Shown here in pieces: positions 1,433 to 63,181 of a DNA stretch of 64,000 bases. The notes beneath the pieces are model-generated. The model did no database searches. It saw only the letters and a program-made list of their open reading frames with translations, and was not told the DNA's origin. The position numbers and the translations under genes are program-made. Numbering within the stretch: the first letter of the stretch is position 1; every line of letters starts with the position of its first letter. The DNA comes from Escherichia phage BF17. The DNA is taken from sequence record MW822008.1. One strand, given 5' to 3'.

Positions 1433-1697
1433 AGTACTTATTGCTGAAACAATGAAGATGATTTACAATATCACGTCAGCACAGAATATGCCCTATCCAA
1501 CTAAGTCTTTATTGAGGACTGTGTATCTGGGGATAGTACAGGAGTACTACAAATCCAAGCACCGAAGCATTATTAGTGTTTATCGTGATTATGAAAGGAT
1601 TCGTATTTTATTCTGGAACAAGAATCGAGTACGTTCTGAATGTGACCTAGTGGACTTTAAATTAGAGAATCTTTATTGCTATAAACAGGGACAATAG
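1419..1697 (+). CDS. hypothetical protein
   Basis: ORF 1401..1697 trimmed to internal ATG preceded by AAGGA. Confidence 0.4.
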   Translation: MRTNEVLIAETMKMIYNITSAQNMPYPTKSLLRTVYLGIVQEYYKSKHRSIISVYRDYERIRILFWNKNRVRSECDLVDFKLENLYCYKQGQ

Positions 1698-1755
1698 TTT
1701 AATTCATGATATAATAATGGGTAAGGAACAATAATTAACACAAGGAGTGTGTGAA

Positions 1756-4660: not shown

Positions 4661-5799
4661 CCCTTTTGCAAATATATGAAGATTTAATGCACTTATGTAA
4701 TACAAACGATGCATTCTTTTATGTGGATCATAAAAGTCCTGCTGGTGGCACGTATCGTGTATTCAGTTATCGTCTAGCATCATACACTGATTTCATGCAA
4801 CCAAATGCGTTGGAAACCCGTGGCTCTATGTGGGAAATTGATGAAGAAGGTGACATGATACGTTGTGCAGCACGTACAATGAAAAAGTTCTTCAATGCTT
4901 ACGAGAATCCTGCTACAATGTTCCCTGCTAACACCACATGCGATGACATTGCGGTAGTGATGCCTAAGTTGGATGGCTCGATCATCAGTACTTATCGTGA
5001 TAATGATGGTGAGATTCGTTGTAAATCACATACTGCATTGTATTCTGACCATGCGATTAACAGCACTCGACTTATTAACGAGAACCAGAATTTGTATCAG
5101 TACATCGACGAAGCGGAACGTTTAGGTTACACAGTTAATATGGAGTATACAAGCCCAGAGTACCGAATTGTATTACCATATCAGGTAGAACAACTGTTTG
5201 TACTGAACGTTCGTCATCGTGTGAGTGGTGAGTTGCTTTGTGGTAAAGCACTACGTGATAAGTTTCCATGTCTTGCACAGTACAGTACTAATATGACTGG
5301 AAAAGATATTCATCACACTTTTCCGGTACGAAATACCTTCCGTGAAAGCGTGGAGGAAGTTCATAAAATGCTTGATATTGAGGGTTTTGTGTGCATCCTA
5401 AATAATGGGACAATGTGTAAAATAAAGACTGACTGGTACAGTTCATTACATCTTACAAAAGATAGTATTATTATTGATTCTCATTTATATGAAGCAGTAT
5501 TAAATGGTTCAAGTGATGATTTAAAACAATTGTTCAGTACTGATGAATATGCTATGCAAAAGATATTAAGAATGGAACAATTGGTATTTTCGTGCTATAA
5601 TGCATTACAAGATGAAGTAGAAAGCTTCGTCAAGGAACACAAGCACTTGGAGCGAAAGGAATTCGCAATGAAGGTTCAGGAGTGTTTAACTAATGAACTG
5701 AATCGTCAGGGCTTGGCCTTTGCAATGTATAACAATAAGAAAGTTGATTACAAAGAGACTCTTATAAAATACATGAAAATTGTACTAAAGGATTTTTAG
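4657..5799 (+). CDS. rnlA: RNA ligase 1 (T4 RnlA-like)
   Basis: 380 aa; N-terminus, FFY, YRVFSY, LE.RG and KxDGS nucleotidyl-lysine motif align with T4 Rnl1 (recalled from memory). Confidence 0.85.
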   Translation: MTLLQIYEDLMHLCNTNDAFFYVDHKSPAGGTYRVFSYRLASYTDFMQPNALETRGSMWEIDEEGDMIRCAARTMKKFFNAYENPATMFPANTTCDDIAVVMPKLDGSIISTYRDNDGEIRCKSHTALYSDHAINSTRLINENQNLYQYIDEAERLGYTVNMEYTSPEYRIVLPYQVEQLFVLNVRHRVSGELLCGKALRDKFPCLAQYSTNMTGKDIHHTFPVRNTFRESVEEVHKMLDIEGFVCILNNGTMCKIKTDWYSSLHLTKDSIIIDSHLYEAVLNGSSDDLKQLFSTDEYAMQKILRMEQLVFSCYNALQDEVESFVKEHKHLERKEFAMKVQECLTNELNRQGLAFAMYNNKKVDYKETLIKYMKIVLKDF

Positions 5800-8880: not shown

Positions 8881-9186
8881 ATGGATATACAAACATTCAA
8901 TAAACTTAAGTACTATGATGATGGTTTTGCATTAATAATTAACGAACTTGATGGAATACCATACGAATATCATAATCAAGTAATGAAGATAATAAAATGT
9001 ATATGTGAAGAATTAAAAAGTATATTTAAAAATGAATATGTTTATGATTTAGGTAATAATAGCAAAAAACTATACATAAAGAAATTCTGGGGAACGCATT
9101 GCGGTTTGATGGTCGATTTAGGTTTAAGTTTAGACGATAATTCTGAATCATGTTCATTATATATAGATGAAATGCGAATATCATGA
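8881..9186 (+). CDS. hypothetical protein
   Basis: 101-aa ORF directly abutting upstream stop. Confidence 0.5.
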   Translation: MDIQTFNKLKYYDDGFALIINELDGIPYEYHNQVMKIIKCICEELKSIFKNEYVYDLGNNSKKLYIKKFWGTHCGLMVDLGLSLDDNSESCSLYIDEMRIS

Positions 9187-9212
9187 GACGTATCAGAATT
9201 CGGTGATATAAT
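9184..9212 (+). promoter_or_regulatory. candidate early promoter (extended -10)
   Basis: TGAGAC ... 17 nt ... TGATATAAT; -10 lies inside GGTGAT/ATCACC inverted repeat. Confidence 0.35.
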
Positions 9213-9570: not shown

Positions 9571-10201
9571 CAGTGCATATGTAATCGGTATTATTATTTC
9601 TGGTATGCTTGCATATAACTATAACCGAAGTGTTCTAGGTTATGTAGTACTTGGTACAGTACTAAGTCCAGTGATTGCCATTGGTCTTCTTGTTATGCTA
9701 GGTGAGAAAAATACAAGCTTCTTTATTACTAAAGAACTTGATAAAATCACTCCAGCACCAGAAACAGTTATTCCAGAAGTTAAAGAAGAAGTTAAAGAAG
9801 AAGTTAAAGAAGAAGTTAAAGAAGTTGAAGTTCAAATGCAAGTTAAAGTGTATAATACACTTGAAGAAACTGATCCTAAAGTTGTAGTGAATGTAGTTCC
9901 AGTCGTTGAAGATGTGAAACCAAAAGCTCCTAAAGTACAGAAAAATACTAAAACTGCAAAGAAAGCTCGTTACACTAAAGGTAAGAACAAAGGTAAATCT
10001 AAGGATGAACCACAACTAGGTGTTCATGACCATACTGCACAAATTGCAACGGCAGCGACCGCAGCAGCAATCGTAACATCACCAATCTACAACAATGATG
10101 ATTACAGTGATTATAGCCGTCACAGCAGTTCTTCCTCTGATTCTTGTTCCTATGATAGCTCTAGTTCTGATTCAAGTTCATCGTCTGGAAGTTGTGATTA
10201 A
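9548..10201 (+). CDS. membrane protein with EVKE repeats and Ser-rich C-terminus
   Basis: 217 aa; two N-terminal hydrophobic helices; (EEVK)x4 from 12-bp tandem repeat; C-terminal SSSSDSxS tract. Confidence 0.55.
   Translation: MLTPIILSSAYVIGIIISGMLAYNYNRSVLGYVVLGTVLSPVIAIGLLVMLGEKNTSFFITKELDKITPAPETVIPEVKEEVKEEVKEEVKEVEVQMQVKVYNTLEETDPKVVVNVVPVVEDVKPKAPKVQKNTKTAKKARYTKGKNKGKSKDEPQLGVHDHTAQIATAATAAAIVTSPIYNNDDYSDYSRHSSSSSDSCSYDSSSSDSSSSSGSCD
9779..9824 (+). repeat. 12-bp tandem repeat (GTTAAAGAAGAA) about 4 copies, in-frame
   Basis: Direct reading of sequence; encodes VKEE repeats. Confidence 0.8.
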
Positions 10202-11001: not shown

Positions 11002-11745
11002 ATGAAACACTTCTTAGAAGTAACTGTACCTGATGATAAAGATTTATACATTGTAGGTGATTTGCATGGTAATGGTAAACTATGGGATGCTACAGTGAAA
11101 GAATTTGGTATTACACACAATGATTATGTTTTCAGTGTAGGTGATATTATCGACCGTGGAGAACAAAATTCAAAGCTCCTTTTTGAATTTTTGTTCGGAG
11201 AAAATCGTTACATGATTGCGGGTAATCATGAGATGATGTGCGTTGATTCGGAAACACTTCGAGATTGGTATCATTGTTGGATAAGTAATGGTGGTGATAA
11301 ATTCCTTGATGAAGTTGGAGGAACAGGCATTCAATTCTTTCGTCAGTACTTAAAGGATCTCCCTATGATTATCCAAATCAATCACCGAGGATTGAAGATT
11401 GGGTTAGTTCATGCTGGAGTTCCGTTGGAATATACAACATGGGAACGATTTGTTAATGGGACAAAATCACTTAGTGCTGATATAATTGATAAGTGCTTGT
11501 GGGATAGAAAAACATTCGATTATTGTAGAACTAATAATACATATTATGCACCTAAGTTAGATGGAGTGCATTGTGTCTTTAGTGGACATACAGCAGTTAC
11601 AGACCCACTCATTTACGGTAATCGCATTTGGATTGATAGTCAGTTCTTGACGGGTGACTTAACTCTCGCTACTCCACAAAGTGGTGGGATGAGATACTTA
11701 CGTAAAGAAAAAGATGAGTACTCATTCAATCGTTTCAAAAGGTAA
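11002..11745 (+). CDS. Ser/Thr protein phosphatase (PPP-family metallophosphatase)
   Basis: GDLHGN, GDIIDRG, GNHE motifs of calcineurin-like phosphatases. Confidence 0.75.
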   Translation: MKHFLEVTVPDDKDLYIVGDLHGNGKLWDATVKEFGITHNDYVFSVGDIIDRGEQNSKLLFEFLFGENRYMIAGNHEMMCVDSETLRDWYHCWISNGGDKFLDEVGGTGIQFFRQYLKDLPMIIQINHRGLKIGLVHAGVPLEYTTWERFVNGTKSLSADIIDKCLWDRKTFDYCRTNNTYYAPKLDGVHCVFSGHTAVTDPLIYGNRIWIDSQFLTGDLTLATPQSGGMRYLRKEKDEYSFNRFKR

Positions 11746-16911: not shown

Positions 16912-16940
16912 TTGGACATTTTAAATCTTAGTGATATAAT
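16912..16940 (+). promoter_or_regulatory. sigma70-type early promoter
   Basis: TTGGAC - 17 nt - TGATATAAT upstream of clpP-like gene. Confidence 0.55.
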
Positions 16941-16974: not shown

Positions 16975-17670
16975 ATGGTTGAACAATTCATGTTTGGTGG
17001 TTATGCTAATGGCGAAGTACGTAACATTTCTATTCCTTACGTAGTTGAGAAAGTTAATGGTTCAGAACGTACATATGATCTAGCATCTCGTATGATGCAA
17101 GACCGTATCATTTTCCTTGATACTGATTTCAATGATCAAATGGCACATATCATCAAACAACAATTGGTATGGTTAGACTCACAAGGTGATTCCCCTATTA
17201 CATTCTACATTAGTTCACCGGGTGGTTCAGTACACGCAGGTTTGGGTATTGCAGATGTTGCTAAGTCTTGTATTTCGCCAATTCGCACTGTAGTAATGGG
17301 CTATGCAGCATCAATGGGTTGCTATACACAATCTGTTATTGGGACTAAAGGTTTCCGTTTAGGTGGTAAACGCTCATACTTCATGTGTCACCAAGTAAGT
17401 TCTGGTACACAAGGTCTAATTACAGACCAGAAGATTTCCCTACAACATTCTGATGCACTGAATACATTGTTGACCAAAGAAATTGCAGAAGCTGTAGGTG
17501 TATCACATGAACAATTACTAAAAGATGCTGACCGCGATTTGTGGTTAAATGCAGAAGAAGCACTTGAATATGGTGAACATGGTTTCATTGATGGTATTAT
17601 TCTTGGTCCACGTAACGAAGAAGGCAAGTACTTAGTTAAGCGTCGCGGTGGTGTAGAAGAGTGGGTGTAA
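16975..17670 (+). CDS. clpP: ClpP-family serine peptidase
   Basis: 231 aa; RIIFL, SSPGG, GYAASMG (Ser), MCHQ (His), RD..L.A.EA.EYG align along the whole length with bacterial ClpP. Confidence 0.8.
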   Translation: MVEQFMFGGYANGEVRNISIPYVVEKVNGSERTYDLASRMMQDRIIFLDTDFNDQMAHIIKQQLVWLDSQGDSPITFYISSPGGSVHAGLGIADVAKSCISPIRTVVMGYAASMGCYTQSVIGTKGFRLGGKRSYFMCHQVSSGTQGLITDQKISLQHSDALNTLLTKEIAEAVGVSHEQLLKDADRDLWLNAEEALEYGEHGFIDGIILGPRNEEGKYLVKRRGGVEEWV

Positions 17671-23464: not shown

Positions 23465-24012
23465 GTGTTAAAGAAGTTCCCTTTGGTGAATATGGCACAC
23501 GTGCAAATTTTGTATTTTGTTATTTCTTTGCAAGAAAATGCAACCCTTACAAAAACTATGAGTTGAATGATATACCAGAAGTAAATTTAGTATTACTGCA
23601 ATTACGATGGGATGGTCTTCTTGGTGGATGTGGTGGAACCGTAGAAAGTACTGATATCTCACTAGAAGATGCGTTGCGTCGTGAAGTTCAAGAAGAAATG
23701 GATTACAATATTTTTGTTTCCCATCTTCGACCACTCAAAACTTTTGAAATTTACCCAGGTGCAAACAGTCACAGTTTTAGCTATGAAGTAACCTATGACG
23801 AGTTGAAACACATTAGAGATGGATACACTAATGCTAAACATGCAAGTGCAGAAGTTGCTGGTGTAAATTTATGTCATATTTCTCGTTATTCTAAGGGACA
23901 AAATCGAGAAGCGGGATATAATAATCTTATGACACAGAACTTCATCGGTACAGCAAAACAAGAATTGGAGTATCTGGTTCAAAAAGAAAACTTACTAATT
24001 AGTTATCTATAG
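23461..24012 (+). CDS. Nudix hydrolase
   Basis: Nudix box GGTVESTDISLEDALRREVQEEMDY (G-x5-E-x7-REVxEE). Confidence 0.7.
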   Translation: MSVKEVPFGEYGTRANFVFCYFFARKCNPYKNYELNDIPEVNLVLLQLRWDGLLGGCGGTVESTDISLEDALRREVQEEMDYNIFVSHLRPLKTFEIYPGANSHSFSYEVTYDELKHIRDGYTNAKHASAEVAGVNLCHISRYSKGQNREAGYNNLMTQNFIGTAKQELEYLVQKENLLISYL

Positions 24013-24701: not shown

Positions 24702-26141
24702 ATGAAAAAATATACAATTGACACAAACGTACTACTATCTGACCCGAATGCATCTATTGCTTTTGATGGTGCTGCAATCATTCTACCATTTACAGTACTG
24801 GAAGAATTGGATTCAATTAAGAGTCGTAATGTAGATGTTTCACGCGATGCTCGTGTTGCTATTCGTAACATTGAAGCAATTATTGCAGATGCATCACATG
24901 ATGAGATTAGTAGTACTGGTGTTAATATTGCTGATGTTCATACCAATATGAATCCTGATAGCAAATTGTTTGTTATTACAAACGAAGAAGCTGAAGCACT
25001 AATTCGTACTAAAGGTTCAGAAGAGAAAGTTCAAACCCTTCTCAAAAGCACAGTACCTGATGATAAAATCATTCTGGTAGCTTTAGCAACAGAATCAGTA
25101 CTGGTAACTCGTGATATCAACATGCGTATCAAAGCACTAAGTTATGGTGTCGAGGTACAAGATTATCGCCATGATATTGTTATTGGTGATAGTGATTTGA
25201 TTCACATTGGTCAACACCATTTGGAAATTAATTTTTGGGAAGTATATAGCAACTTATCCAATACTAATATTCAATCCGAACAAGTTGGTCGTCGTTTGTA
25301 TCATTACATTTCTAAAAGCTTGATTGAACATTTGCTTCCACAAAATCTATGCATCGGTGATTATCTATATGATGATGCAGACGTATTATTTGTGTACGAA
25401 GGTCAATCAGCAATTGAGGAAGATGATGGAACACTAACACCAGAAGATATTTTGGTATTCCAAGATATTGGACAATCAGTAGCTTTACGTGCTAAAGTAT
25501 GGGATATTAAAGCAAAGAATATCCAACAAGCACTCGCCATCAACAGTATTCTCGATCCTGATGTACATCTAACAGTACTGCTAGGTTCTGCTGGTACTGG
25601 TAAAACACTAATTACGATTGCTACTGCATTAGAATTAGTACTGGAAAAACGTAAATACGACCGAATCATCTTCTCTAAAACTCAAGACTCACAGTTTGAA
25701 GATATTGGTTTCTTGCCAGGTTCAGAAGCAGAAAAAGTGATTCCATTCTGTGGAGCCGCAATTGACGCGTTAGAGTTTCTTCATAAAGATGATGCTAACC
25801 CACAAGGTAGTATTGAAGAGATTATGAAACGTAATGTTATTCAATTTAAAGCACTAAACTTTGTACGTGGACGTTCATTCACCAACACTATTCTAGTAGT
25901 TGATGAATTCCAAAACATTACACCTGCACAAGCCAAAACAATCTTGACACGAGCAGGATTAAACTGTAAAGTAGTAATTATGGGTAACTTGAGTCAGATT
26001 GACAGTAAGTTTATTAGTCCTGTTAACAGTGGTTTGACATATGTAACTGAGAAGTTTAAAGATTGGGCAGGTTGTCGTGTCATCGAACTTGAAGGTGTTG
26101 TTCGCTCACCACTAGCTGAATTTGCTGAAGAAAATATGTAA
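24702..26141 (+). CDS. phoH: PIN-domain PhoH-like ATPase
   Basis: 479 aa; N-terminal PIN-like region (IDTNVLL), Walker A GSAGTGKT, Walker B VVDEFQN typical of PhoH/YlaK. Confidence 0.85.
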   Translation: MKKYTIDTNVLLSDPNASIAFDGAAIILPFTVLEELDSIKSRNVDVSRDARVAIRNIEAIIADASHDEISSTGVNIADVHTNMNPDSKLFVITNEEAEALIRTKGSEEKVQTLLKSTVPDDKIILVALATESVLVTRDINMRIKALSYGVEVQDYRHDIVIGDSDLIHIGQHHLEINFWEVYSNLSNTNIQSEQVGRRLYHYISKSLIEHLLPQNLCIGDYLYDDADVLFVYEGQSAIEEDDGTLTPEDILVFQDIGQSVALRAKVWDIKAKNIQQALAINSILDPDVHLTVLLGSAGTGKTLITIATALELVLEKRKYDRIIFSKTQDSQFEDIGFLPGSEAEKVIPFCGAAIDALEFLHKDDANPQGSIEEIMKRNVIQFKALNFVRGRSFTNTILVVDEFQNITPAQAKTILTRAGLNCKVVIMGNLSQIDSKFISPVNSGLTYVTEKFKDWAGCRVIELEGVVRSPLAEFAEENM

Positions 26142-26148
26142 TATTGTA

Positions 26149-26178
26149 TGGGACATTATGTCCCATACATGATATAAT
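26149..26178 (+). promoter_or_regulatory. early promoter with palindromic TGGGACA upstream element
   Basis: GGGACA - 17 nt - TGaTATAAT; 19-bp palindrome ATGGGACATTATGTCCCAT. Confidence 0.55.
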
Positions 26179-26209
26179 GTTGTTATCATACTACAGAAGG
26201 AGATATAAA

Positions 26210-26398
26210 ATGGCTAAACAACCTAAGAAAAAAGAACCAGTAGCAAAAGTTAAGAAAGAGAAAGTTATTCAATCTAAAGAACAACGTATGTACGAACAAC
26301 GTAAGAGTGAAACCCTATCCGGTCTACAAGCTCTACGCAAACAAGGTGTACTAACTCGTGCACAGTACCGTGAACTAGTAGCTCAGAAAGGTTTTTGA
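26210..26398 (+). CDS. small basic protein
   Basis: ORF 26144..26398 trimmed to ATG after GGAG; 62 aa, K-rich. Confidence 0.45.
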   Translation: MAKQPKKKEPVAKVKKEKVIQSKEQRMYEQRKSETLSGLQALRKQGVLTRAQYRELVAQKGF

Positions 26399-26502
26399 TT
26401 CATTTGAAGACATATTGTGGAGTTCTTAATAAATACTTTTATAAGAATAATAATACTTTTTATTAAATTAAAAAGAACTCCATGTGTTATTTCAGTTTTT
26501 CG

Positions 26503-26530
26503 TCCCTGTCTTTTGGCAGGGATTTTTTAT
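26503..26530 (+). terminator. rho-independent terminator
   Basis: CCCTGTC/GGCAGGG stem then ATTTTTT. Confidence 0.55.
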
Positions 26531-26624
26531 ATCTATATCTTGACAAAAGGAACAAATCATGAGAACATGTATTAAAGGAAGAATGACTTTCCATTAGGTT
26601 ATTTTAACTTAAAGGAGATTTCAT

Positions 26625-27182
26625 ATGTTTTTTGACCAAACATTTACGTTGTATCACGATTCTGGTAAAGTTGAGATTATTGATAATCTGTTAGAGTACA
26701 TTGCGGAACATGACGGTATAGACCGTTTCCACAGTAAGATGAAATTCGATTTAGCTGAATTCAACAAAAAGAATCGTGAAACATTTTGGAAGAACCGTTT
26801 CTATTACGAAATGTATCCAGAAAAGTTCGTAGGTTATTATCTTTGTACTGAAAAAGGATTACTTGTATCTCCTGATTTACTTATGGGTGAATACATGATA
26901 CTCTATAATGAGTACTGGGAACATAAACGTAAAGCTCGTGATAAGGAATGGCGACATAAGCGTTCGTATATGTACAAACATAACCACTCCCGATACAAGC
27001 GTCCTAAGACTCAGCAAGAGCGTCGTATGGCTTGTGCAGTACTGAAGGATGAGGGGGAACCTGAAATACGTGGAAGACGTAAGATGCGTTCATTACCATC
27101 GTATTGGGACGATATCAGAACAAGACACAGTACTGGCTGGAAATACAGTACTAAACGTAAACATCAATACAAAGGGAGCTAA
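26625..27182 (+). CDS. hypothetical protein, basic C-terminus
   Basis: 185-aa ORF; AAAGGAG upstream. Confidence 0.5.
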   Translation: MFFDQTFTLYHDSGKVEIIDNLLEYIAEHDGIDRFHSKMKFDLAEFNKKNRETFWKNRFYYEMYPEKFVGYYLCTEKGLLVSPDLLMGEYMILYNEYWEHKRKARDKEWRHKRSYMYKHNHSRYKRPKTQQERRMACAVLKDEGEPEIRGRRKMRSLPSYWDDIRTRHSTGWKYSTKRKHQYKGS

Positions 27183-27209
27183 TGCTCCCTAATTTTATAG
27201 GTGAACTTT

Positions 27210-27539
27210 ATGAACAAAATTGACGTTACTGTAGTGATTGGTTATATTGAAATTGAACCGTGTGGCATTGATACCTTTATTGACACTCTTAATAAGTATC
27301 GTGCTGAATATAACGGTCCCATTAGTCTTTCACCCGACGGTGGTTACGGCGGTTTTCATGGATACAATGTAATTTGGACCAGAGAAGAAACTGACGAAGA
27401 ATATAATACACGAATTGAAGCTGAATCTAAAAAATGTGAAGAAATTGAACGTCAAGAAATGAAACACTTAATGAACAAGAAATCATTAAGTACCGAAGAG
27501 AAATCTAAACTGCTAAAATATATCAAGGATTACATGTAA
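27210..27539 (+). CDS. hypothetical protein
   Basis: ORF 27201..27539 trimmed to ATG. Confidence 0.5.
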   Translation: MNKIDVTVVIGYIEIEPCGIDTFIDTLNKYRAEYNGPISLSPDGGYGGFHGYNVIWTREETDEEYNTRIEAESKKCEEIERQEMKHLMNKKSLSTEEKSKLLKYIKDYM

Positions 27540-28189
27540 TGAAAAATGTAACTCAAGAAAAGATTCTGTACCTTGCAAAGTACAATGGTGGTTTCAATAT
27601 CATTAGCCGTGAGTACAGTGGTAATTTGGCTAAGTTGATTGACAGTTTGTTAGAATTTGATTTCATTAAATGGGAAACTAATGAACTTTGGTACGAATAT
27701 GCTGGTCAGAAATGGGAAAGTGATTATGATAATGCAATACATTCATACACTATCACCAAAGCAGGTGAAGTTCGATTAGCCATTATGCGTTGTGCATATA
27801 CTTACAAAAATCATAAAGGTGAAGAAAAACATATTCGCAGAAATGAAGAGCTATTACTTCTCATGGAAGCAGCAAAAGTTACAATGCATGATTTGTTCCA
27901 CCACCCACGTTGGTATGAAAATCTAACAAAAGCAGAGTACAAAGCTTTACGTTACATTGATGAACAAAACAACACCCCAGTTGAAGTTGATGATGTTAGT
28001 GATGATGAACTAAGCCTCAAAAATGTATTTGAAAGTACCAGTACTGAAAGTATTACAGACATTTCTGTACAGATGGCCCTAAAAGCAATGGAACTTTTCA
28101 AGACACAATATGAAGGACACAGTGCTGAAGAAGTAGAGCGTGAGTTCATCACACGCGTACAGATTGCATTGTTCCAATCGAAAAAGTAG
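27539..28189 (+). CDS. hypothetical protein
   Basis: 216-aa ORF. Confidence 0.55.
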   Translation: MKNVTQEKILYLAKYNGGFNIISREYSGNLAKLIDSLLEFDFIKWETNELWYEYAGQKWESDYDNAIHSYTITKAGEVRLAIMRCAYTYKNHKGEEKHIRRNEELLLLMEAAKVTMHDLFHHPRWYENLTKAEYKALRYIDEQNNTPVEVDDVSDDELSLKNVFESTSTESITDISVQMALKAMELFKTQYEGHSAEEVEREFITRVQIALFQSKK

Positions 28190-28215
28190 GATGATATGAA
28201 ATATGAACATCCGTG

Positions 28216-28397
28216 ATGGGTTATCATATAAAGAAGCAGGTAAAGATGGTGTCAAAGGTGAAGCTGTAGATCTTTGCATTTGTGCACTTGACATGTTCGC
28301 TTTGTAATGCGATAATATGAGTTCAGAAGAGATGGAACGTGAGTTCCTTACTTACATGAATGTTAAACTAGCCAAATGGCGTAAATCAATTCAATAG
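28216..28397 (+). pseudogene. decayed partial duplicate of 3' end of gene 27539..28189
   Basis: Two short reading frames split by a stop encode ...AVDLCICALDMFAL and MSSEEMEREFLTYMNVKLAKWRKSIQ, resembling upstream C-terminus ...DISVQMALKAMELF...SAEEVEREFITRVQIALFQSKK. Confidence 0.4.
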
Positions 28398-28406
28398 GTA
28401 TTTTAA

Positions 28407-29378
28407 ATGAAAACTAAAATTATTTCTGAACAAAAAATTGGCAATACTACAGTACTGAATCTTGAAGTTCAAGGTCTTAGTAATGTTCGTTCTCTTACGG
28501 TTTGTACTCAGAGAGATGATTTGACTGATTTCTATAGCTCAGAATACATGTCAGAAGAACCTTGGGATATGGGATGGTTGGACGGTAGTAGTTATATCAG
28601 TTCACGTTATAGTTTTGGTTCTCATGAAAATATTGAACAATTAAAAAATGAGTATATTAAACTCAGTGATACTATTGAAATGAAAGAAGAAGATTGTGTA
28701 GAACTTTTCATTTTTGAATTCGATGCCGGAAATGGTAATTCATTACTAGTAAGTAATATTGAAGAACATTTAATGTATCATGAAATTGAAGATGTAGATT
28801 TTGAAAGTATTAAAAATGTTGTTCATATGGTTGGTGGTAGTATTACTGATGATTCAGATATCGGTCATAATATTTCACTGTGCTTAATTTCTCATCCAAA
28901 AACTCGTGGTTTTAAAGTTCCACAAGATGAAACTTACGTGTCTGAAACTGCTGATGAAGGAATTTATCCTTGGAATGATTATGTAGAATACTATGGTCAT
29001 TTCTGTTCTGATACAAAAGAACTGAAAAAAGGCGAACAATATTTTGATATGTTCCGTGCTGCACAGCGTTTAGTACTGAATAATACTGAACTATTTCCTG
29101 ATCGCGGCGAAGAAAATATGATTGATATTATCTTCAAGAACTATGATTATGTACAGAACATTCCTGATAATGTACATTTGGAATATGTTCACAGTTCTTC
29201 AAACAAATTCTATAATATTGAATTGAATGCTCCAGTGTGTGAAGTAATTATTGAGTACGGTGCTATTGGTAAAACCAGTACTACTGATGGTGAAGAATTC
29301 GAAACTATTGAAGAAGCACGTAAGTTCTTCGAGAAGAAAGTAATTTCCAAAATTAAAAGTGGTTATAGCCCAAAATGA
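28407..29378 (+). CDS. hypothetical acidic protein
   Basis: 323-aa ORF. Confidence 0.55.
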   Translation: MKTKIISEQKIGNTTVLNLEVQGLSNVRSLTVCTQRDDLTDFYSSEYMSEEPWDMGWLDGSSYISSRYSFGSHENIEQLKNEYIKLSDTIEMKEEDCVELFIFEFDAGNGNSLLVSNIEEHLMYHEIEDVDFESIKNVVHMVGGSITDDSDIGHNISLCLISHPKTRGFKVPQDETYVSETADEGIYPWNDYVEYYGHFCSDTKELKKGEQYFDMFRAAQRLVLNNTELFPDRGEENMIDIIFKNYDYVQNIPDNVHLEYVHSSSNKFYNIELNAPVCEVIIEYGAIGKTSTTDGEEFETIEEARKFFEKKVISKIKSGYSPK

Positions 29379-29755
29379 AAATCACACGCTTTGGTAAAAC
29401 CTTTGAACTAAACATTGTTTCTGTTTATAAAAAAGGAAAATCAGGAAAGTTAAGCACTGATAATATTAGATTTGTTATTAGTGATTATTATGATATGTTT
29501 AATCAGGCATTTGAAGAAAATAAATTTGGTTTGATTTTATGTAAACCACAAAAACCGGAATTAGGTATTTTGGATTTAAGAACTGATAAGTCTGATTTTA
29601 TTGGTAATCTTGATATTATTGAATTTAAAGTTGATATATCAAAAGAACATTTTAGAGTTAAAAACTATAATTATTACAAAGTTGATATTAATTCTATCGA
29701 AGTACAAAACGTACTTGATGAACTTATCAGTAATAATTCGTGTTTTACTAAATGA
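29375..29755 (+). CDS. hypothetical protein
   Basis: 126-aa ORF, ATGA overlap. Confidence 0.5.
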   Translation: MKITRFGKTFELNIVSVYKKGKSGKLSTDNIRFVISDYYDMFNQAFEENKFGLILCKPQKPELGILDLRTDKSDFIGNLDIIEFKVDISKEHFRVKNYNYYKVDINSIEVQNVLDELISNNSCFTK

Positions 29756-45930: not shown

Positions 45931-48720
45931 ATGTTAAACAATAATATTGATAATATTGTACAACTTCTTTATGGGCATCACAAATTTATTGAAAGAAATA
46001 CTGGTGATACAATAGACCCAACAGTACAACATTATGTGGTGAATAATCAGGGTGTTTTGGCGAACAACCGTCATTTTATTAACTATTCTGCAATGGAAGG
46101 TCAACCAAACGGTGACGGGACAACAGAAGGTCAAAGTCTATTAATTTTAGGATACATTTATGCGTATCTGGCAACAAATGATCCAATGTTTTTAGATAAG
46201 GCAAAGTGGTACTGGGACGCATATCATCAGTACTTTTATGCTGGACGTGAATTACCAGATCCACCTACACCACTACAATGTAACTGGATAGTTAATGCCA
46301 AAGAACCTATATTGGCTAACTGGCCTTTAGCTGATGATGGCTGGCCCACACATGGTGGTTTCAAGGGAGTAGAATTTACATTTACTAATGGTCAATGTAA
46401 AATACCACATGGTGCACCATATTATGGTCAGTTCTTGGATAAAGTGACATTTGCATTCAAAGGTGCGTTAGCATGGAACCAAATAAATGCTTCAGTAAAA
46501 GCATTATTACCAGATGGTAGTGTTGATTGGGATACACCAGGTGAACAATATGATGTTGACTGGATTATCGATTTCATGGGTAGAAAAATCGACTGGGATG
46601 GTAATATTTTAGAAGAAGGTTTTGACGAATCTGAAAAAGGAACTGTTCAATTAAAGAATACAACAATTAATGGTGTATATAAATTAAATTTTGCAAATCG
46701 TCAACCAGTAGAATATGGTGGTGTGATAATTCAACGAAATGAAATGCAACACAACCGCCCTCTTCATGTTCCAATTGATTTGGAATTTGCTGATAACGCA
46801 TCAGATGCAGAATTATGGTTTAGTGATGCTTCTTATTTGTTATATAAAATAACAAAAGAAAGAAAACATTATTTGGGTTGGAAATGTTCACTACTAACGT
46901 GTTATGCTTATGGTGATATTGACTCCAGAGATAAATTTTTCAGACAAAGTACAATTGTAACCACACCATTCACTGATGGTATTTCCTATGAATATTTTTA
47001 TCCTAGTGATGCTATTGCTAAGTTTGGTAGAAATTCTCTAGGATATATTACTATCAGGCAAGACCAAAGTGCACAAAGTACTATGGAACAACAAGCTATT
47101 TGGTTCAGGGTCAATGCTGATTCTAAATTACTTGTAGACTATGGTGGTGTATGTGATGATGGTAAGCCGTTATCATTTAAACCAGTACTGGAATTGTCAA
47201 AAACAAAAAATGACCATGATGTTGTTCGTTATCGTTGTGGCTTACCGGAAAGTAAAGACCAAAATATCACACATTCATTAACACCTTTAAGTGCATTTGT
47301 TAGAGAAAAGAAAGCAGATGGTTCCCCTTATATAATTGCTGATAGTAGAATTGTTGTTCCTTATGGTGCAGCTACGTCCGAAATGATATATAGTACTGAT
47401 ATATTAGTTACACGCCGCGATACCATTAATCAGTTAGTTTGTGGTGAAGATGATGGTGCTGTTATTGGATTTTGGCTATTAGCAACAAATAAGTCTGAAG
47501 TTAAATCTTTTACCTATCGTTCATATGAAGATGATTACAATATAAGAATTGTAGATGATAATGGTTGGAGATGGTGGTGGATGATTCCTGCAACACACGG
47601 GGAATGGACTACAATCACACTAAGTTCCGATACATTACGTTTATCTGGGTATCAGCCAAATCATCCAAGTTCTGACCCAAGACCAGATGCACCAGTTTAT
47701 AGTGAACTAGAAGATATTACTATTTTACCTGATACAACCCCAGTAGATGGTGTTGCTGCAATAATTGATTGGTATTGTATTAATGACATTCCAGAATTAT
47801 ACACGGATGCTGACGGTGATGACTATACTATGACATTTTCAATAACAATTGCAGGTGAATCACCATATACTGCACAGTTAGGGGATTGTGTAATCAAGGA
47901 TTATTTGTTAAACTCATTGCATTACACACCAGGAACAATACCATTTTCTAACATCACTGACCCGTATGCGAACCAGTATTCAGGATGGCGTGGTTTACCG
48001 TATCCAGGTTATCAATATCCTGTGATATATTGTTTTAAAGACCAGCCAGTAGATAACACACGCTTAGGAAACATGTTAAGCTTTATGAAAGATTCCCAAA
48101 CATGGTTTACTCAACAATTCGGTACTGTTGGTCCGTGTGCACAAGCATATGTTTGGAACCGCTGGGATAACTTAAAATATGGTGAACCAGATACATTTAC
48201 TATGCTACATTGGGGTGATCAAGCATGGAGTGGGTATGAACCACGTGCGTTCTTTGGGGCTGCCAGAGCATGGCAAGAACTCGCAGAGAGAGGAATTGAA
48301 CCACCAGCAGATCTTGTTGAATTTTGTGAGAATTGGATTCACTTTTTAATTCAATTTCAAAAAGATAATGATGGTCGTTCACCAACAATCTTCAATAAAG
48401 ATGGCACAGTTGAAGGTCCAGATTGGGACTTTACAGGTCATATGTGTGGGTTGTGGTTAGCTGGGGCTTGTGCTGCTGGATTGGCTGGATGTAAAATAGA
48501 AGGTCTAACAACACTCGCTGATAACTTAGTTCTCGAACTTCAAAAGAATTATGTTATTGTAAATCCAGGTTCACCAATGAATGGTTCATGGAGTCCAGCA
48601 GTTAGAGAAGGTACTGATAATGGTATGTTTTTTGGTTTCTGGGCAGGTGAGATTATGCGTGGATTGGGATTATACTCAATGTACCGCTTAAACACACCAA
48701 ATCGTTTCCGTGATTTATAA
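45931..48720 (+). CDS. large hypothetical protein (929 aa), possibly virion-associated
   Basis: Long ORF, W/D/G-rich; no motif recognised by eye. Confidence 0.6.
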   Translation: MLNNNIDNIVQLLYGHHKFIERNTGDTIDPTVQHYVVNNQGVLANNRHFINYSAMEGQPNGDGTTEGQSLLILGYIYAYLATNDPMFLDKAKWYWDAYHQYFYAGRELPDPPTPLQCNWIVNAKEPILANWPLADDGWPTHGGFKGVEFTFTNGQCKIPHGAPYYGQFLDKVTFAFKGALAWNQINASVKALLPDGSVDWDTPGEQYDVDWIIDFMGRKIDWDGNILEEGFDESEKGTVQLKNTTINGVYKLNFANRQPVEYGGVIIQRNEMQHNRPLHVPIDLEFADNASDAELWFSDASYLLYKITKERKHYLGWKCSLLTCYAYGDIDSRDKFFRQSTIVTTPFTDGISYEYFYPSDAIAKFGRNSLGYITIRQDQSAQSTMEQQAIWFRVNADSKLLVDYGGVCDDGKPLSFKPVLELSKTKNDHDVVRYRCGLPESKDQNITHSLTPLSAFVREKKADGSPYIIADSRIVVPYGAATSEMIYSTDILVTRRDTINQLVCGEDDGAVIGFWLLATNKSEVKSFTYRSYEDDYNIRIVDDNGWRWWWMIPATHGEWTTITLSSDTLRLSGYQPNHPSSDPRPDAPVYSELEDITILPDTTPVDGVAAIIDWYCINDIPELYTDADGDDYTMTFSITIAGESPYTAQLGDCVIKDYLLNSLHYTPGTIPFSNITDPYANQYSGWRGLPYPGYQYPVIYCFKDQPVDNTRLGNMLSFMKDSQTWFTQQFGTVGPCAQAYVWNRWDNLKYGEPDTFTMLHWGDQAWSGYEPRAFFGAARAWQELAERGIEPPADLVEFCENWIHFLIQFQKDNDGRSPTIFNKDGTVEGPDWDFTGHMCGLWLAGACAAGLAGCKIEGLTTLADNLVLELQKNYVIVNPGSPMNGSWSPAVREGTDNGMFFGFWAGEIMRGLGLYSMYRLNTPNRFRDL

Positions 48721-48721
48721 C

Positions 48722-48750
48722 TTGACATAGAAAAAGTAATTATGTATAAT
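48722..48750 (+). promoter_or_regulatory. sigma70-type promoter
   Basis: TTGACA - 17 nt - TGTATAAT. Confidence 0.6.
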
Positions 48751-48751
48751 C

Positions 48752-48782
48752 AGAGAACTTCATATGGAGTTCTCTTTTTTTT
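48752..48782 (+). terminator. rho-independent terminator
   Basis: AGAGAACT/AGTTCTCT 8-bp stem then T8. Confidence 0.65.
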
Positions 48783-50613: not shown

Positions 50614-50970
50614 ATGAAATCTAAAATCTTTTTACCACAATTAATGTGGCATCTAGCAGAGTTAGATGAAAATGATGAATATACTGACTATGGTGCATGG
50701 GATGACAGTACTGAAACTTTTAAACCAGATGTAAAATATAAAATCATCTGCAATGAAAGCAAAGGGCACAGAAGGTGGACTGAAGAATTTGATCTCGTAT
50801 TTCTTGACATGAGCACAAATAAGTTTTATCATTGTACTTATGAACGAGGTTTAACAGAAGATAGACCAGTACAACCATTCAGTACTGAAACTGATGGTGT
50901 TAAGTGCAATGAAGTTTCTGTTACCAGAGAAGAAATTATCACTTATCGAACTTTGTGGAAATATTTGTAA
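50614..50970 (+). CDS. hypothetical protein
   Basis: 118-aa ORF after GGAG. Confidence 0.5.
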   Translation: MKSKIFLPQLMWHLAELDENDEYTDYGAWDDSTETFKPDVKYKIICNESKGHRRWTEEFDLVFLDMSTNKFYHCTYERGLTEDRPVQPFSTETDGVKCNEVSVTREEIITYRTLWKYL

Positions 50971-50971
50971 A

Positions 50972-51370
50972 ATGCTTAAAGAATTAGATTTTTCAAACTT
51001 AGAAATTATCAGTGCTGTAAAAAACATTTCCGATATGGGAGATGAGAAAGCAGTTCTTGTTACTATTACTTTTGTAAAAGAAAAAGATAGCTATAGCCAT
51101 TTAACTGGCATTGAAGAACTAATTCATAAAACCAATCTTGAGAATGATGGTAAACTCATCAAGCTTCAGGCTTCCTATACGCAAAAAACGTCAAATTTTA
51201 TAGACCTAAATAATGTAGTCAAGGTGGTATACAATCATCCTGAACACACATATAGGAACACGACAAGAAATGAAAATGTTGCTAACGATTCGAATATTAT
51301 CGAAGATGTTGAATTCATAAACACAATTTTTGATCGTTGTTCTAAGGATTTAAAAAAAGTATACATGTAA
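50972..51370 (+). CDS. hypothetical protein
   Basis: ORF 50894..51370 trimmed to ATG after upstream stop. Confidence 0.5.
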   Translation: MLKELDFSNLEIISAVKNISDMGDEKAVLVTITFVKEKDSYSHLTGIEELIHKTNLENDGKLIKLQASYTQKTSNFIDLNNVVKVVYNHPEHTYRNTTRNENVANDSNIIEDVEFINTIFDRCSKDLKKVYM

Positions 51371-51399
51371 TGGGACATTATATGTTCCAATGATATAAT
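51371..51399 (+). promoter_or_regulatory. early promoter with TGGGACA upstream element
   Basis: GGGACA - 16 nt - TGaTATAAT; near-identical to promoter at 26149. Confidence 0.55.
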
Positions 51400-51676
51400 G
51401 TATATAGAAAATGACAACGGACATTGAAAAATGGACACTGAGAACCTACTTCTCTTGAAAATGTAAAGGATAGATGAGCTTTACCGTTGTAGCGAACAGC
51501 AGAAGAAACCTGTTAGAGTACTGGCATTCAAACAAACACGATGTAAGACCACGAATCACGGCGACACGGCTGTATAAAGAACTCCGATAAGCATACAGAG
51601 AGTTCCTAGATAGATGTATAAGGTTCGCACCTTACCAGATTTGCTAAGGGAGTTCAAGAATAGCGGACGCAATTTT

Positions 51677-51706
51677 TACAAGAAAGTTGCGTCCAAAATT
51701 TGAGAA
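51677..51706 (+). repeat. dispersed direct repeat copy 1
   Basis: TACAAGAAAGTTGCGTCCAAAATTTGAGAA, 27/30 identical to copy at 51829. Confidence 0.7.
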
Positions 51707-51828
51707 CAAGTACTACTTTGATCGAATAGAGTTAGTACTGAGTGCTGTTGATGAAAAGACCAGCGACCGTTGCATATGACTGCGATAGAGAGAAACCGAG
51801 CAACCCGCTTTCGCTCTCTAAATTTTGG

Positions 51829-51858
51829 TACAAGAAAGATCCGTCCAAAATTTGAGAA
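51829..51858 (+). repeat. dispersed direct repeat copy 2
   Basis: TACAAGAAAGATCCGTCCAAAATTTGAGAA. Confidence 0.7.
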
Positions 51859-51896
51859 ATTCGCAATTCGATAATATCCGATGCCATCATCGTCAA

Positions 51897-51921
51897 GAGA
51901 GACTTAATTGTCTCTTTTTTA
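51897..51921 (+). terminator. rho-independent terminator
   Basis: GAGAGAC-TTAATT-GTCTCT then TTTTTT. Confidence 0.55.
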
Positions 51922-52060
51922 TTACCTTCATTCCCCTGCGGGGGGATGTAATAGTCCTCAACAAATCCCGTCAAGTTTTTAAAGTACATTATCATTTTCA
52001 GAAGGAACTAGTTTACGAAGTAAACGCAGTGACTTCTTGAGTTACGAGAGAACGAAGTGA

Positions 52061-57343: not shown

Positions 57344-57735
57344 TTATGAGATGGCGTAAACGACATGTAACAAGATTTAATAAAATAATCAAAAAGTATT
57401 TCTCGCATAAGTTAGATCCAATCATACTTCAACTAAGAAGTAGTATGTTTGATAGACGTTTCCCACAGTGTTTAGAATCGTACAGTCGTAGACGTTCCAA
57501 GAATGAATACCTGGTATATCGTTATGATTTATCAGAATTCTTTTTGAATACTCGTGTATCTGTACCCATAAAACTGTACTCAAGGGTAAAACGAAGTAGG
57601 ATTCAAGATATCACGTATGGTTATCTTATGCTTGAAATCAGCGAACTAAATGAAAAAACAGGTAGAAATTTCAGTACTTTATGTCTGGAAAACAATGATA
57701 CCATAAAAAGAATTATAGAAGATTTGGGCAAGTAG
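57340..57735 (+). CDS. hypothetical basic protein
   Basis: 131-aa ORF, ATGA overlap. Confidence 0.45.
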   Translation: MIMRWRKRHVTRFNKIIKKYFSHKLDPIILQLRSSMFDRRFPQCLESYSRRRSKNEYLVYRYDLSEFFLNTRVSVPIKLYSRVKRSRIQDITYGYLMLEISELNEKTGRNFSTLCLENNDTIKRIIEDLGK

Positions 57736-57753
57736 GATTTTTTATGCTATAAT
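57724..57753 (+). promoter_or_regulatory. candidate promoter (extended -10)
   Basis: TTGGGC ... TGcTATAAT; lies very close to the SD of the next gene. Confidence 0.3.
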
Positions 57754-57764
57754 TGGAGATGAGT

Positions 57765-59986: not shown

Positions 59987-60319
59987 ATGCTAAATCTAGT
60001 TATCCAAGGTAATGTTGATATTACTCCAGCAATCAATGACGCAATTCATGCTGAAGCAAATGCACTAACGAAGTTTAGTGATTCTTCAGTACTGCATATT
60101 GGTGTTCATGTGAAGAAAGAGCATAAGAATCAATATTTCGTAACTTTAACATCAGGCGGTAAGAGTGTTACAGCCGATGATGCAGATTTATACAAAGCAA
60201 TTGGTGATTCATTTGAAAAAATGGAAACTGTCTTAGGTAAAGACAAAAGCATCAAATTGTATCGCCGTAACCACCCCGAACATCCAGTTCAAGAAGACTT
60301 GACTGAAGACGAAGAGTAA
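59987..60319 (+). CDS. hpf: ribosome hibernation factor / RaiA-like (S30AE family)
   Basis: 110 aa; I.GNVDIT, GG...A..DLY.AI pattern and acidic C-terminal tail resemble HPF/YfiA. Confidence 0.65.
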   Translation: MLNLVIQGNVDITPAINDAIHAEANALTKFSDSSVLHIGVHVKKEHKNQYFVTLTSGGKSVTADDADLYKAIGDSFEKMETVLGKDKSIKLYRRNHPEHPVQEDLTEDEE

Positions 60320-60327
60320 GATATAAT
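60299..60327 (+). promoter_or_regulatory. sigma70-type promoter
   Basis: TTGACT - 17 nt - TATAAT spanning stop codon of hpf-like gene. Confidence 0.5.
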
Positions 60328-60330
60328 AAA

Positions 60331-60358
60331 GGGACAGAGATTATTCTGTCCCTTTTCT
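60331..60358 (+). terminator. rho-independent terminator
   Basis: GGGACAGA/TCTGTCCC 8-bp stem then TTTTCTT. Confidence 0.65.
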
Positions 60359-60373
60359 TATGGAGTTTTAATT

Positions 60374-60790
60374 ATGAATTATGTTTGGGCAGATGTAGTA
60401 AAATCTCTCGTATCAACACATGATGTTGATTTACCAGATAGTCTGGTATTTAACAGATGGTACTATCCAAACCCAGAGGACTGTAACGTTGGAATTGGAT
60501 TTTTTATTAATGATAAATCTAATTTGTTTGGATTAATTGAAGATGAGACAAAATCCAACCTTATATTCTCGATTGAGTTGAATGCTGATCACATAAAATA
60601 CTACACCAATAAAATGGACGAAGACGATGGAGATGTTATAATCCCAGCAGAAATAGACGAAGCTTCATTTTTTCAGTTATCATTGATTTATGATCTATCT
60701 AACATTACTTATGATAATGTGAAAGACCTTTTTATATTGTACAATAAAATGTATAATTACTTTTTAAGACCTTTTTATATTGTACAATAA
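60374..60790 (+). CDS. hypothetical protein (3' end within tandem duplication)
   Basis: 138-aa ORF; last 7 codons supplied by second copy of 43-bp repeat. Confidence 0.5.
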   Translation: MNYVWADVVKSLVSTHDVDLPDSLVFNRWYYPNPEDCNVGIGFFINDKSNLFGLIEDETKSNLIFSIELNADHIKYYTNKMDEDDGDVIIPAEIDEASFFQLSLIYDLSNITYDNVKDLFILYNKMYNYFLRPFYIVQ

Positions 60791-60809
60791 AATGTATAAT
60801 TACTTTTTA
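60724..60809 (+). repeat. perfect 43-bp tandem duplication (2 copies)
   Basis: AGACCTTTTTATATTGTACAATAAAATGTATAATTACTTTTTA repeated head-to-tail. Confidence 0.9.
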
Positions 60810-60825
60810 TAACAGAGGAATTGTA

Positions 60826-61011
60826 ATGGAATATACCATATGTGTAATTGTATGTATCATAGCCTTACTCGCAGGAGTTGGTGTGATGATTTACTGTGAT
60901 GCGGAACCAAGTACTGAAGTAGGTACAACCATCACACTTAAACCTGGTGTTAAAATTAATGATACCTATTGCTACAATCCAAACACAAACCGCTATGAGA
61001 TTTGTTTATGA
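60826..61011 (+). CDS. small membrane protein
   Basis: 61 aa, N-terminal hydrophobic helix. Confidence 0.45.
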   Translation: MEYTICVIVCIIALLAGVGVMIYCDAEPSTEVGTTITLKPGVKINDTYCYNPNTNRYEICL

Positions 61012-63079: not shown

Positions 63080-63108
63080 TGGGACAAGTTAACATCTTCT
63101 GATATAAT
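63080..63108 (+). promoter_or_regulatory. early promoter with TGGGACA upstream element
   Basis: GGGACA - 16 nt - TGaTATAAT. Confidence 0.5.
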
Positions 63109-63181
63109 TACTAGTATCTGAACATCACTTGATGATAAAGAGATAAGATTATGCGTTATAGCTGTGGTATAATATTTTATC

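Follow-up and report, generated by a model that had tools for sequence, protein, structure and literature searches.

The window, by which we mean the whole 64,000-nucleotide stretch of DNA analysed, is, judging from its identity to known genomes, part of an Asteriusvirus jumbo coliphage (PBECO4/121Q group). Positions 25000-28000 are 99.0-99.5% identical to Asteriusvirus JP4, PBECO4, G17, ECO103 and others; for 121Q the figure is 97.8%. The long ORFs of the window lie nearly all on the + strand, and its G+C content is 33.6%. As a genome-wide reference we used phage ECO103 4-12-1 (351,992 bp, unannotated), whose reverse complement provides the ECO103 coordinates given below and whose positions 95,089-155,326 are the counterpart of the window. 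Two regions of the window, 45315-48693 and ~28200-29400, are variable insertions among phages that are otherwise 99% identical; a 929-aa ORF at 45931-48720 is missing from ECO103, and a WGR-domain gene at 28407-29378 is present in G17 and missing from JP4. A 43-bp unit (GACCTTTTTATATTGTACAATAAAATGTATAATTACTTTTTA-A) occurs in two tandem copies at 60725-60810, just 5' of the ORF at 60826.

Class sites in the window

An initial annotation had described three short stretches, at 26149, 51371 and 63080, as promoters of almost the same 30-bp architecture, in which a TGGGACA box stands upstream of a TG-extended -10 element. Their sequences and coordinates are exactly as given there (Table 1), and the architecture is indeed near-identical, with the box separated from the TG by 14, 13 and 13 nt and from TATAAT by 17, 16 and 16 nt, respectively. 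The two weaker variants that it had named, at 16912 and 57724, are likewise real, while a fourth exact site, at 11457, had been overlooked. In the window, TGGGACA-N13/14-TGATATAAT occurs four times on the coding strand, and the looser pattern TGGGACA-N(14-19)-TATAAT gives four matches, all on the + strand, where 0.01 would be expected. The heptamer was rejected as a stand-alone signal, being without clear enrichment (11 matches against 6.2 expected, a count of 11 being reached in 5 of 100 shuffles), so that significance rests with the composite only. A scan of the window with the matrix described below added 1687, 5573, 9184 and 23894 to a set that otherwise comprises 11457, 16912, 26149, 51371, 57725 and 63080, with every site on the + strand.

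Class sites in the window precede a ClpP-like protease gene, a Nudix gene and small genes without known function. At 26149 the predicted unit is compact, running from the promoter through a 62-aa gene (26210-26398) to a terminator, and at 51371 there is no ORF for ~660 nt downstream. In the case of 57725, the -10 ends 6-12 nt before the ATGs at 57759 and 57765, which implies either a leaderless mRNA or an unused site. When the 63080 site is compared with that of ECO103, where the two genomes are ~83% identical, the box and the -10 are identical and 8 of the 13 spacer bases have changed.

The Nudix gene behind the 63080 site (63151-63595) is laid out in two frames, the first 21 residues (MRYSCGIIFYRDGQILIGHTT) being in frame 0 and the remainder (QNHWDLPKG...) in frame +1; the change of frame falls at ACA-ACA-CGG. 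The same split is present in ECO103 (~83% identity there), with silent changes in both parts, and could be a conserved +1 frameshift as opposed to a sequencing error.

Table 1. Coordinates of promoter-like sites, hairpin, terminator and RNA genes. Positions are those of the window except in the last row.
Feature	Coordinates	Strand	Description
Predicted class promoter variant	1687-1715	+	AGGGACA-N13-TGATATAAT; intergenic
Class-like site	5573-5601	+	TGGAACA-N13-TGCTATAAT; within the 3' part of an RNA ligase gene
Predicted class promoter variant	9184-9212	+	TGAGACG-N13-TGATATAAT; intergenic
Exact site, N14	11457-11486	+	Within a NinI-like phosphatase gene; next gene 265 nt on
Predicted class promoter variant	16912-16940	+	TTGGACA-N13-TGATATAAT; intergenic; 5' of ClpP-like protease gene 16975-17670
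Class-like site	23894-23922	+	AGGGACA-N13-GGATATAAT, without TG; within the 3' end of a Nudix gene
Palindrome / RNA hairpin	26145-26169	+	TGTATGGGACAT-T-ATGTCCCATACA; 11-12 bp, -16.5 kcal/mol, z = -3.1
Predicted class promoter	26149-26178	+	TGGGACAttatgtcccatacaTGATATAAT; TGGGACA, 14-nt spacer, TGATATAAT; box and -10 kept in orthologs
Intrinsic terminator	26502-26528	+	Closes the short 26149 unit; annotated terminator in phage G17
Predicted class promoter	51371-51399	+	TGGGACAttatatgttccaaTGATATAAT; TGGGACA-N13-TGATATAAT; directly after the stop of ORF 50894-51370
Putative structured ncRNA gene	51406-51975	+	~570 nt, no ORF; behind the predicted 51371 promoter; one of four paralogs
Weak variant	57725-57753	+	TGGGCAA-N13-TGCTATAAT; the 57724 register reads TTGGGCA
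Predicted class promoter	63080-63108	+	TGGGACAagttaacatcttcTGATATAAT; TGGGACA-N13-TGATATAAT; 5' of Nudix gene, ATG 63151
ncRNA paralogs	~89981-90505, 223180-223723, 333241-333768		ECO103 reverse complement

The class across the genome and the genes behind it

A profile was built from all 77 coding-strand TGNTATAAT sites of ECO103 (352 kb), none of them selected. Counted from the TG, TGGGACA occupies positions -20 to -14 of this profile; it is preceded by an A-rich tract (-29 to -23), and position -1 is a G. The matrix derived from these 77 sites, when run over the same genome on which it had been trained, returned 40 sites, every one of them on the + strand, against 0-1 in shuffled genomes; neither the unselected profile nor the strand asymmetry nor the location statistics depend on this identity of training and scanned genome. 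With respect to location, 31 of the 40 are not within any ORF of the same strand (P = 4e-11), and 23 are no more than 100 nt from an ORF start. The spacer is 13 nt at most of the 40 sites, 26149 and 11457 belonging to an N14 minority, and the consensus can be written as an A-tract, TGGGACA (~-36 to -30), a nearly constant 13 nt and GTG(A/C)TATAAT. The series of boxes grades into xTTGACA (GTTGACA and ATTGACA variants) in the same register, and TGAAATG and TGGAACA are found in ECO103 as rare variants only. Both TG at -15/-14 and TATAAT are present, as in the extended -10 promoters of sigma-70.

TGGGACA is thus the commonest extended -10 partner genome-wide; its sites are strand-specific and intergenic, and orthologous sites are conserved while their spacers have diverged, all of which bears out the earlier suggestion of a phage-specific promoter consensus. 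These patterns make it very likely that the TGGGACA sites are promoters of a distinct class, and they support its being specific to this giant E. coli phage family.

In ECO103, class sites precede genes for SSB, a primase, a Dda-like helicase, the topoisomerase II large subunit, two exonucleases, a DNA methylase and an ATPase. One class site lies 58 nt 5' of a gp55-like late sigma gene, which was picked up as a weak phmmer match and then confirmed with PHROGs (E = 3e-154), and one lies 5' of a tRNA-like sequence, judged by eye. In T4 terms, the gene set behind the TGGGACA class is middle-type.

Turning to the other promoters of ECO103, a canonical class reads TTGACA/TTGACT/TTGCAA-N16-17-TATAAT with A-rich upstream tracts, and has AAAAAGTACTTGCAA as a variant. 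Its sites are concentrated at ~30-58 kb and 318-352 kb of the reverse complement, close to the genome ends and among small ORFs. These two regions hold near-identical canonical promoters in dense arrays, of the forms AAAAAGTACTTGCAA…gcgTATAATgttttACATC and TTGACA…aGTACTGTATAAT. In some canonical promoters the -35 forms part of a terminator stem (GGGTTGACTtcGGTCAGCCC), with a T-run and then the -10 behind it, and such terminator-promoter modules are common to ECO103 and the terminator table of phage CBB. The top enriched intergenic 7-mers are ATAAATA, CTAAATA (T4-late-like), the -10, CTTGACA and ribosome-binding sites, so that three promoter classes are visible among them. A fourth class, considered on the basis of enriched TACTTGC and TGCCAGT, resolved into the TTGCAA variant of the early class and terminator stems.

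The initial annotation had offered an early role for the TGGGACA promoters. This is probably wrong, given the middle-type genes that TGGGACA precedes and the separate TTGACA/TTGCAA class in the small-ORF regions near the genome ends, which in CBB were suspected by its authors to be the early ones. Because the class stands before replication genes, tRNAs and the late sigma gene, with the canonical class near the ends, it is on balance probably a middle (delayed-early) one.

Between its -10 and its start codon, the gp55-like gene has a conserved hairpin in the 5' UTR (loci L017-L034, ~9960-9990). The loop of this hairpin is conserved (AAGGATCG or ACGGATCG), its stems show compensatory changes (GTAAAAC/GTTTTAT, GTGGGAC/GTCCTAT, GGTACA/TGTACC), and the late sigma mRNA may depend on it for its stability or for the control of its translation. 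At ~9900-9925 of the same loci, immediately 5' of this gene's class promoter, the T4-late-like TATAAATA is found on the - strand, opposite to the gp55-like gene, and faces the divergently transcribed genes of that strand. In the window, at 48720-48780 and 60296-60360, TTGACA/TTGACT-N17-TATAAT is followed directly by a terminator-like hairpin and a T-run, which could reflect either very short transcripts or chance promoter matches before terminators.

Hairpins at gene ends and a structured RNA family

The box at 26149 had been taken for the centre of a 19-bp palindrome; it is in fact the left arm of a perfect 25-nt palindrome. As an RNA hairpin, this element begins 4 nt past the stop codon of phoH (26139-26141), with the box in its 5' arm. 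No U-tract follows the stem, as TGATATAATG comes next, and a terminator scan gives no call; the hairpin may therefore stabilise the transcript instead of terminating it. At 51371-51389 the box lies within an 8-bp hairpin (UGGGACAU/AUGUUCCA) that is perfect only if one G·U pair is allowed. Both dyads begin right after stop codons.

The perfect palindrome at 26145-26169 and the imperfect dyad at 51371-51389 are what favours the further proposal of the initial annotation, namely that the dyad is an operator for a dimeric regulator common to these promoters. An operator of this kind would appear as an inverted repeat at all or most sites, however, and the box lies in a stem of at least 6 bp at just 3 of the 40 class sites; at 63080 and 11457 folding is no better than for shuffled sequence, and most other class sites are likewise without a dyad. 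The position of the dyads directly after stop codons also speaks against it, as does their divergence. In UE-S1, ph0011 and TH47 the stem of the 26145 hairpin is kept and its loop varies, and two A-to-G changes (UE-S1, TH47), like the 51371 site, keep the pairing as G·U while breaking the DNA symmetry, which argues for selection on RNA and not on a DNA palindrome. Moreover, the counterpart in phage 7t3 has a T-run and would act there as a terminator. We consider an operator most improbable and read the dyad at 26149 and 51371 not as part of the class, but as an RNA hairpin that belongs to the 3' end of the preceding gene and overlaps the -35 box. In this overlap, the two hairpins resemble the terminator-promoter modules of the canonical class, and the same genomes also have hairpins embedding the canonical -35.

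The putative ncRNA gene behind the 51371 promoter has an internal hairpin and T-run at 51899-51920; its start is inferred from the -10 and its end is that of the last conserved block. In ECO103 there are four ncRNA paralogs, each just after a class promoter (at 89908, 143322, which equals 51371 of the window, 223126 and 333205). Homologs were found in 71 phage records, all relatives of this jumbo group, and the hosts of these phages are Escherichia, Klebsiella, Salmonella, Erwinia, Yersinia, Cronobacter, Pectobacterium, Serratia and Xanthomonas. Among the matches listed, a record mostly has 3-5 places with the ncRNA, and in most relatives' loci one copy lies ~4.6 kb 3' of the gp55-like gene.

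An alignment of 17 ncRNA sequences supports 80 base pairs, 46 of the 80 having compensatory changes, with 97.6% of cells paired. The covariation score of 0.479, compared with at most 0.084 when the partners were slid, was reached in 0 of 500 shuffles. For the sequence 3' of 51371, ARAGORN and Rfam gave no match to a tRNA or a known RNA family (gathering threshold, E ≤ 10), and a hammerhead-like reading of the GAUGAG block, made by eye, was dropped, since the core U4 is missing and Rfam returned no match. No published description of the ncRNA family was found in the literature searched; in the distant relative PA5oct, RNA-seq detected four ncRNAs, two of them abundant. It therefore appears that these are members of a previously undescribed family of highly structured RNAs of ~500 nt, kept from Escherichia to Xanthomonas phages among those examined, in which case the class promoters would mark four unannotated structured RNA genes per genome.

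The reader of the box and comparison with known systems

We compared the surroundings of the gp55-like gene in 19 relatives and paired sigma loci with gp55 loci by contig; the sigma relatives were collected with an alignment query, a single-protein query having returned 121Q only. Two orthologous positions carry a class site in 121Q, CBB, GAP32, BF, fHe-Yen9-04 and metagenomic relatives. At both, Asteriusvirus and a metagenomic clade have TGGGACA with TGA or TGC, whereas the clade of CBB, GAP32, BF and fHe-Yen9-04, together with metagenomic relatives, has TG(G/A)AAC(G/A) with TGG. In the canonical class, both lineages have TTGACA. Where their hosts are known, the compared phages infect Enterobacterales or Salmonella, some of the loci being metagenomic, and sigma-70 is taken to be the same across these related hosts. 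Since the box and the N of TGN vary by phage lineage under a host sigma-70 that is presumably constant, a phage-encoded reader is the simplest explanation.

In all the compared phages there is a sigma-70-family protein in which Pfam recognises regions 2, 3 and 4; its ECO103 homolog is ORF 332205-333170. Between Asteriusvirus and CBB this protein is 35% identical, compared with ~74% for the gp55-like protein. Sigma clade B (L044, L048, SE_PL) is 43-45% identical to clade C and 35-37% to clade A. Clades A and B have in common the TGGGACA box, SR[ST]S[IL]HR in region 4.2 and P[RK]Y in region 3.0, while clade C has SKATLSRRY (region 4.2) and PE[HY]L (region 3.0). These clade-specific motifs align with R584/E585/R588 and V454/H455 of sigma-70, residues that contact the -35 and the TG. 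The co-variation of sigma and box amounts to one or two evolutionary events, and RaK2 has the sigma gene with no clear box 5' of its gp55-like gene.

We suggest that the -10 and the TG are read in the usual sigma-70-family manner, and that recognition of the box would fall to a specificity factor encoded by the phage; the likeliest candidate is region 4.2 of the phage sigma-70-family factor on host core polymerase. Three promoter classes are seen alongside three sigma factors, and these could form a cascade leading from host sigma-70 (TTGACA, early) through the phage sigma (TGGGACA) to the gp55-like sigma (ATAAATA, late), in which the TGGGACA class would drive DNA replication and nucleotide-metabolism genes, tRNAs, the four structured ncRNAs and the gp55-like late sigma gene. 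As a whole, the explanation that this is a phage-specific middle class, with a box read by a phage factor and a separate dyad, seems to us evenly poised. That the phage sigma-70-family factor is the protein in question is a serious possibility that falls a little short of this. More tentatively, the class may be the regulon of a fast-evolving phage sigma in RaK2-like phages, with co-evolved -35 (region 4.2) and -13 (region 3.0) recognition and the structured RNA family at its core.

Host sigma-70 might instead suffice, the sites being ordinary extended -10 promoters of early flavour in which GGGACA is a tolerated -35 variant with a GACA core. TGnTATAAT is perfect, GGGACA lies 16-17 nt upstream and matches TTGACA in 4 of 6 bases, GTTGACA and ATTGACA box variants occur in the same register, and in A4 the ortholog of the 26149 site reads TTGACA-N17-TGCTATAAT; on the strength of the TTGACA-grading boxes and this ortholog, host sigma-70 may use at least some of the sites. 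The phage sigma, furthermore, is divergent in region 2.3/2.4; it is without W433/W434, and its region 2.4 differs by clade (IYM versus IRQ) while the -10 stays TATAAT. Extended -10 promoters need no -35, yet here the box shows strong conservation of G-G-G at positions where sigma-70 favours T-T, and the spacing is nearly constant at 13 nt. In addition, the CBB-clade box TGRAACG has only 'AC' in common with TTGACA, a separate TTGACA class is kept, and the box and the N of TGN follow the phage lineage, although the known hosts are close relatives with presumably the same sigma-70. It is thus unlikely that host sigma-70 alone accounts for the class.

Rather improbable, too, is an appropriation of host sigma-70 in the style of T4, with host sigma-70 on the -10/TG and a phage activator on the box, with or without an anti-sigma co-factor. 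Such a scheme would fit an architecture that is as in T4 middle promoters as well as a lineage-specific box, and in CBB an HTH regulator gene adjoins the sigma gene. However, phmmer detected no AsiA or MotA homolog among all ECO103 ORFs (E > 0.2; the MotA query was approximate), and a tblastn search with AsiA, the query being 100% identical to T4-like records, found all matches, among those listed, in genomes of T4-like size. The box is also at the -35 position and not at -30, the lineage-specific base at -13 would be left unexplained, and the phage sigma-70-family factor would be left without a visible promoter class.

For recognition by the phage sigma, the templates and the predicted specificity residues are now defined, and a natural swap partner exists in the CBB-type sigma with its TGGAACG box, so that the function of this sigma becomes a question for direct experiment. 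The analysis also provides a three-class promoter map for widespread ~350-kb coliphages that are being developed for therapy.

The middle promoters of T4 combine an upstream box, which stands in for the -35, with a good, often extended -10. The TGGGACA promoters resemble them in having a phage-specific box in place of the canonical -35 next to such a -10, and probably also in driving replication genes and in preceding late sigma-dependent transcription. They differ in the box itself, since the MotA box TGCTTtA is at -30, whereas the TGGGACA box ends 16 nt before the -10 hexamer, at -35; the sites have no (a/t)(a/t)TGCTT(t/c)A box centred at -30. Moreover, Asteriusvirus-type phages encode a full sigma-70-family factor and T4 is without one. 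In Bacillus phage SPO1, an early gene encodes the sigma factor gp28, which turns the host core polymerase towards a second class of promoters. In contrast to that cascade, the -10 of the TGGGACA class cannot be told apart from the host consensus, and the assignment of sigma to class is inferred. With bacterial extended -10 promoters the class has the same TG at -15/-14 and TATAAT, to which it adds a strongly conserved, non-canonical and lineage-specific box at fixed spacing.

No description of promoters in Asteriusvirus was found in the searchable literature, including the Sharanji and PA5oct papers. For CBB and GAP32, three predicted promoter classes have been published (PMC5259590). In CBB, one comprises RpoD-like promoters with an UP-like element, in a region that the authors suspected to be early, and the third is the late ATAAATA class (PMC5259590). 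The "divergent RpoD-like" class of CBB and GAP32 (Promoter 1) reads TGAAAC(G/A)-N13-TGnTATAAT (Table S6; Buttimer et al. 2017, PMC5259590); in CBB its sites lie 5' of DNA-synthesis genes and of the gp55-like gene, and no reader was proposed for it (PMC5259590). The promoters described here have an identical architecture and the same 29-nt length, with a 7-nt box that begins with TG, then 13 nt and TGnTATAAT; their gene set is alike (DNA synthesis genes and the gp55-like sigma gene), and orthologous positions match, 5' of the gp55-like sigma gene and of the ncRNA. The differences are in the box, which is TGGGACA in Asteriusvirus and TGAAAC(G/A) or TGGAACG in CBB and GAP32, and in the TGN, which is TGA or TGC and never TGG. 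Because they carry TGGGACA instead of the TGAAACG consensus, we file these promoters as a variant of the divergent RpoD-like class, and from this comparison of motifs, positions and genes we conclude that the TGGGACA class represents, in Asteriusvirus, the divergent RpoD-like promoters of CBB and GAP32.
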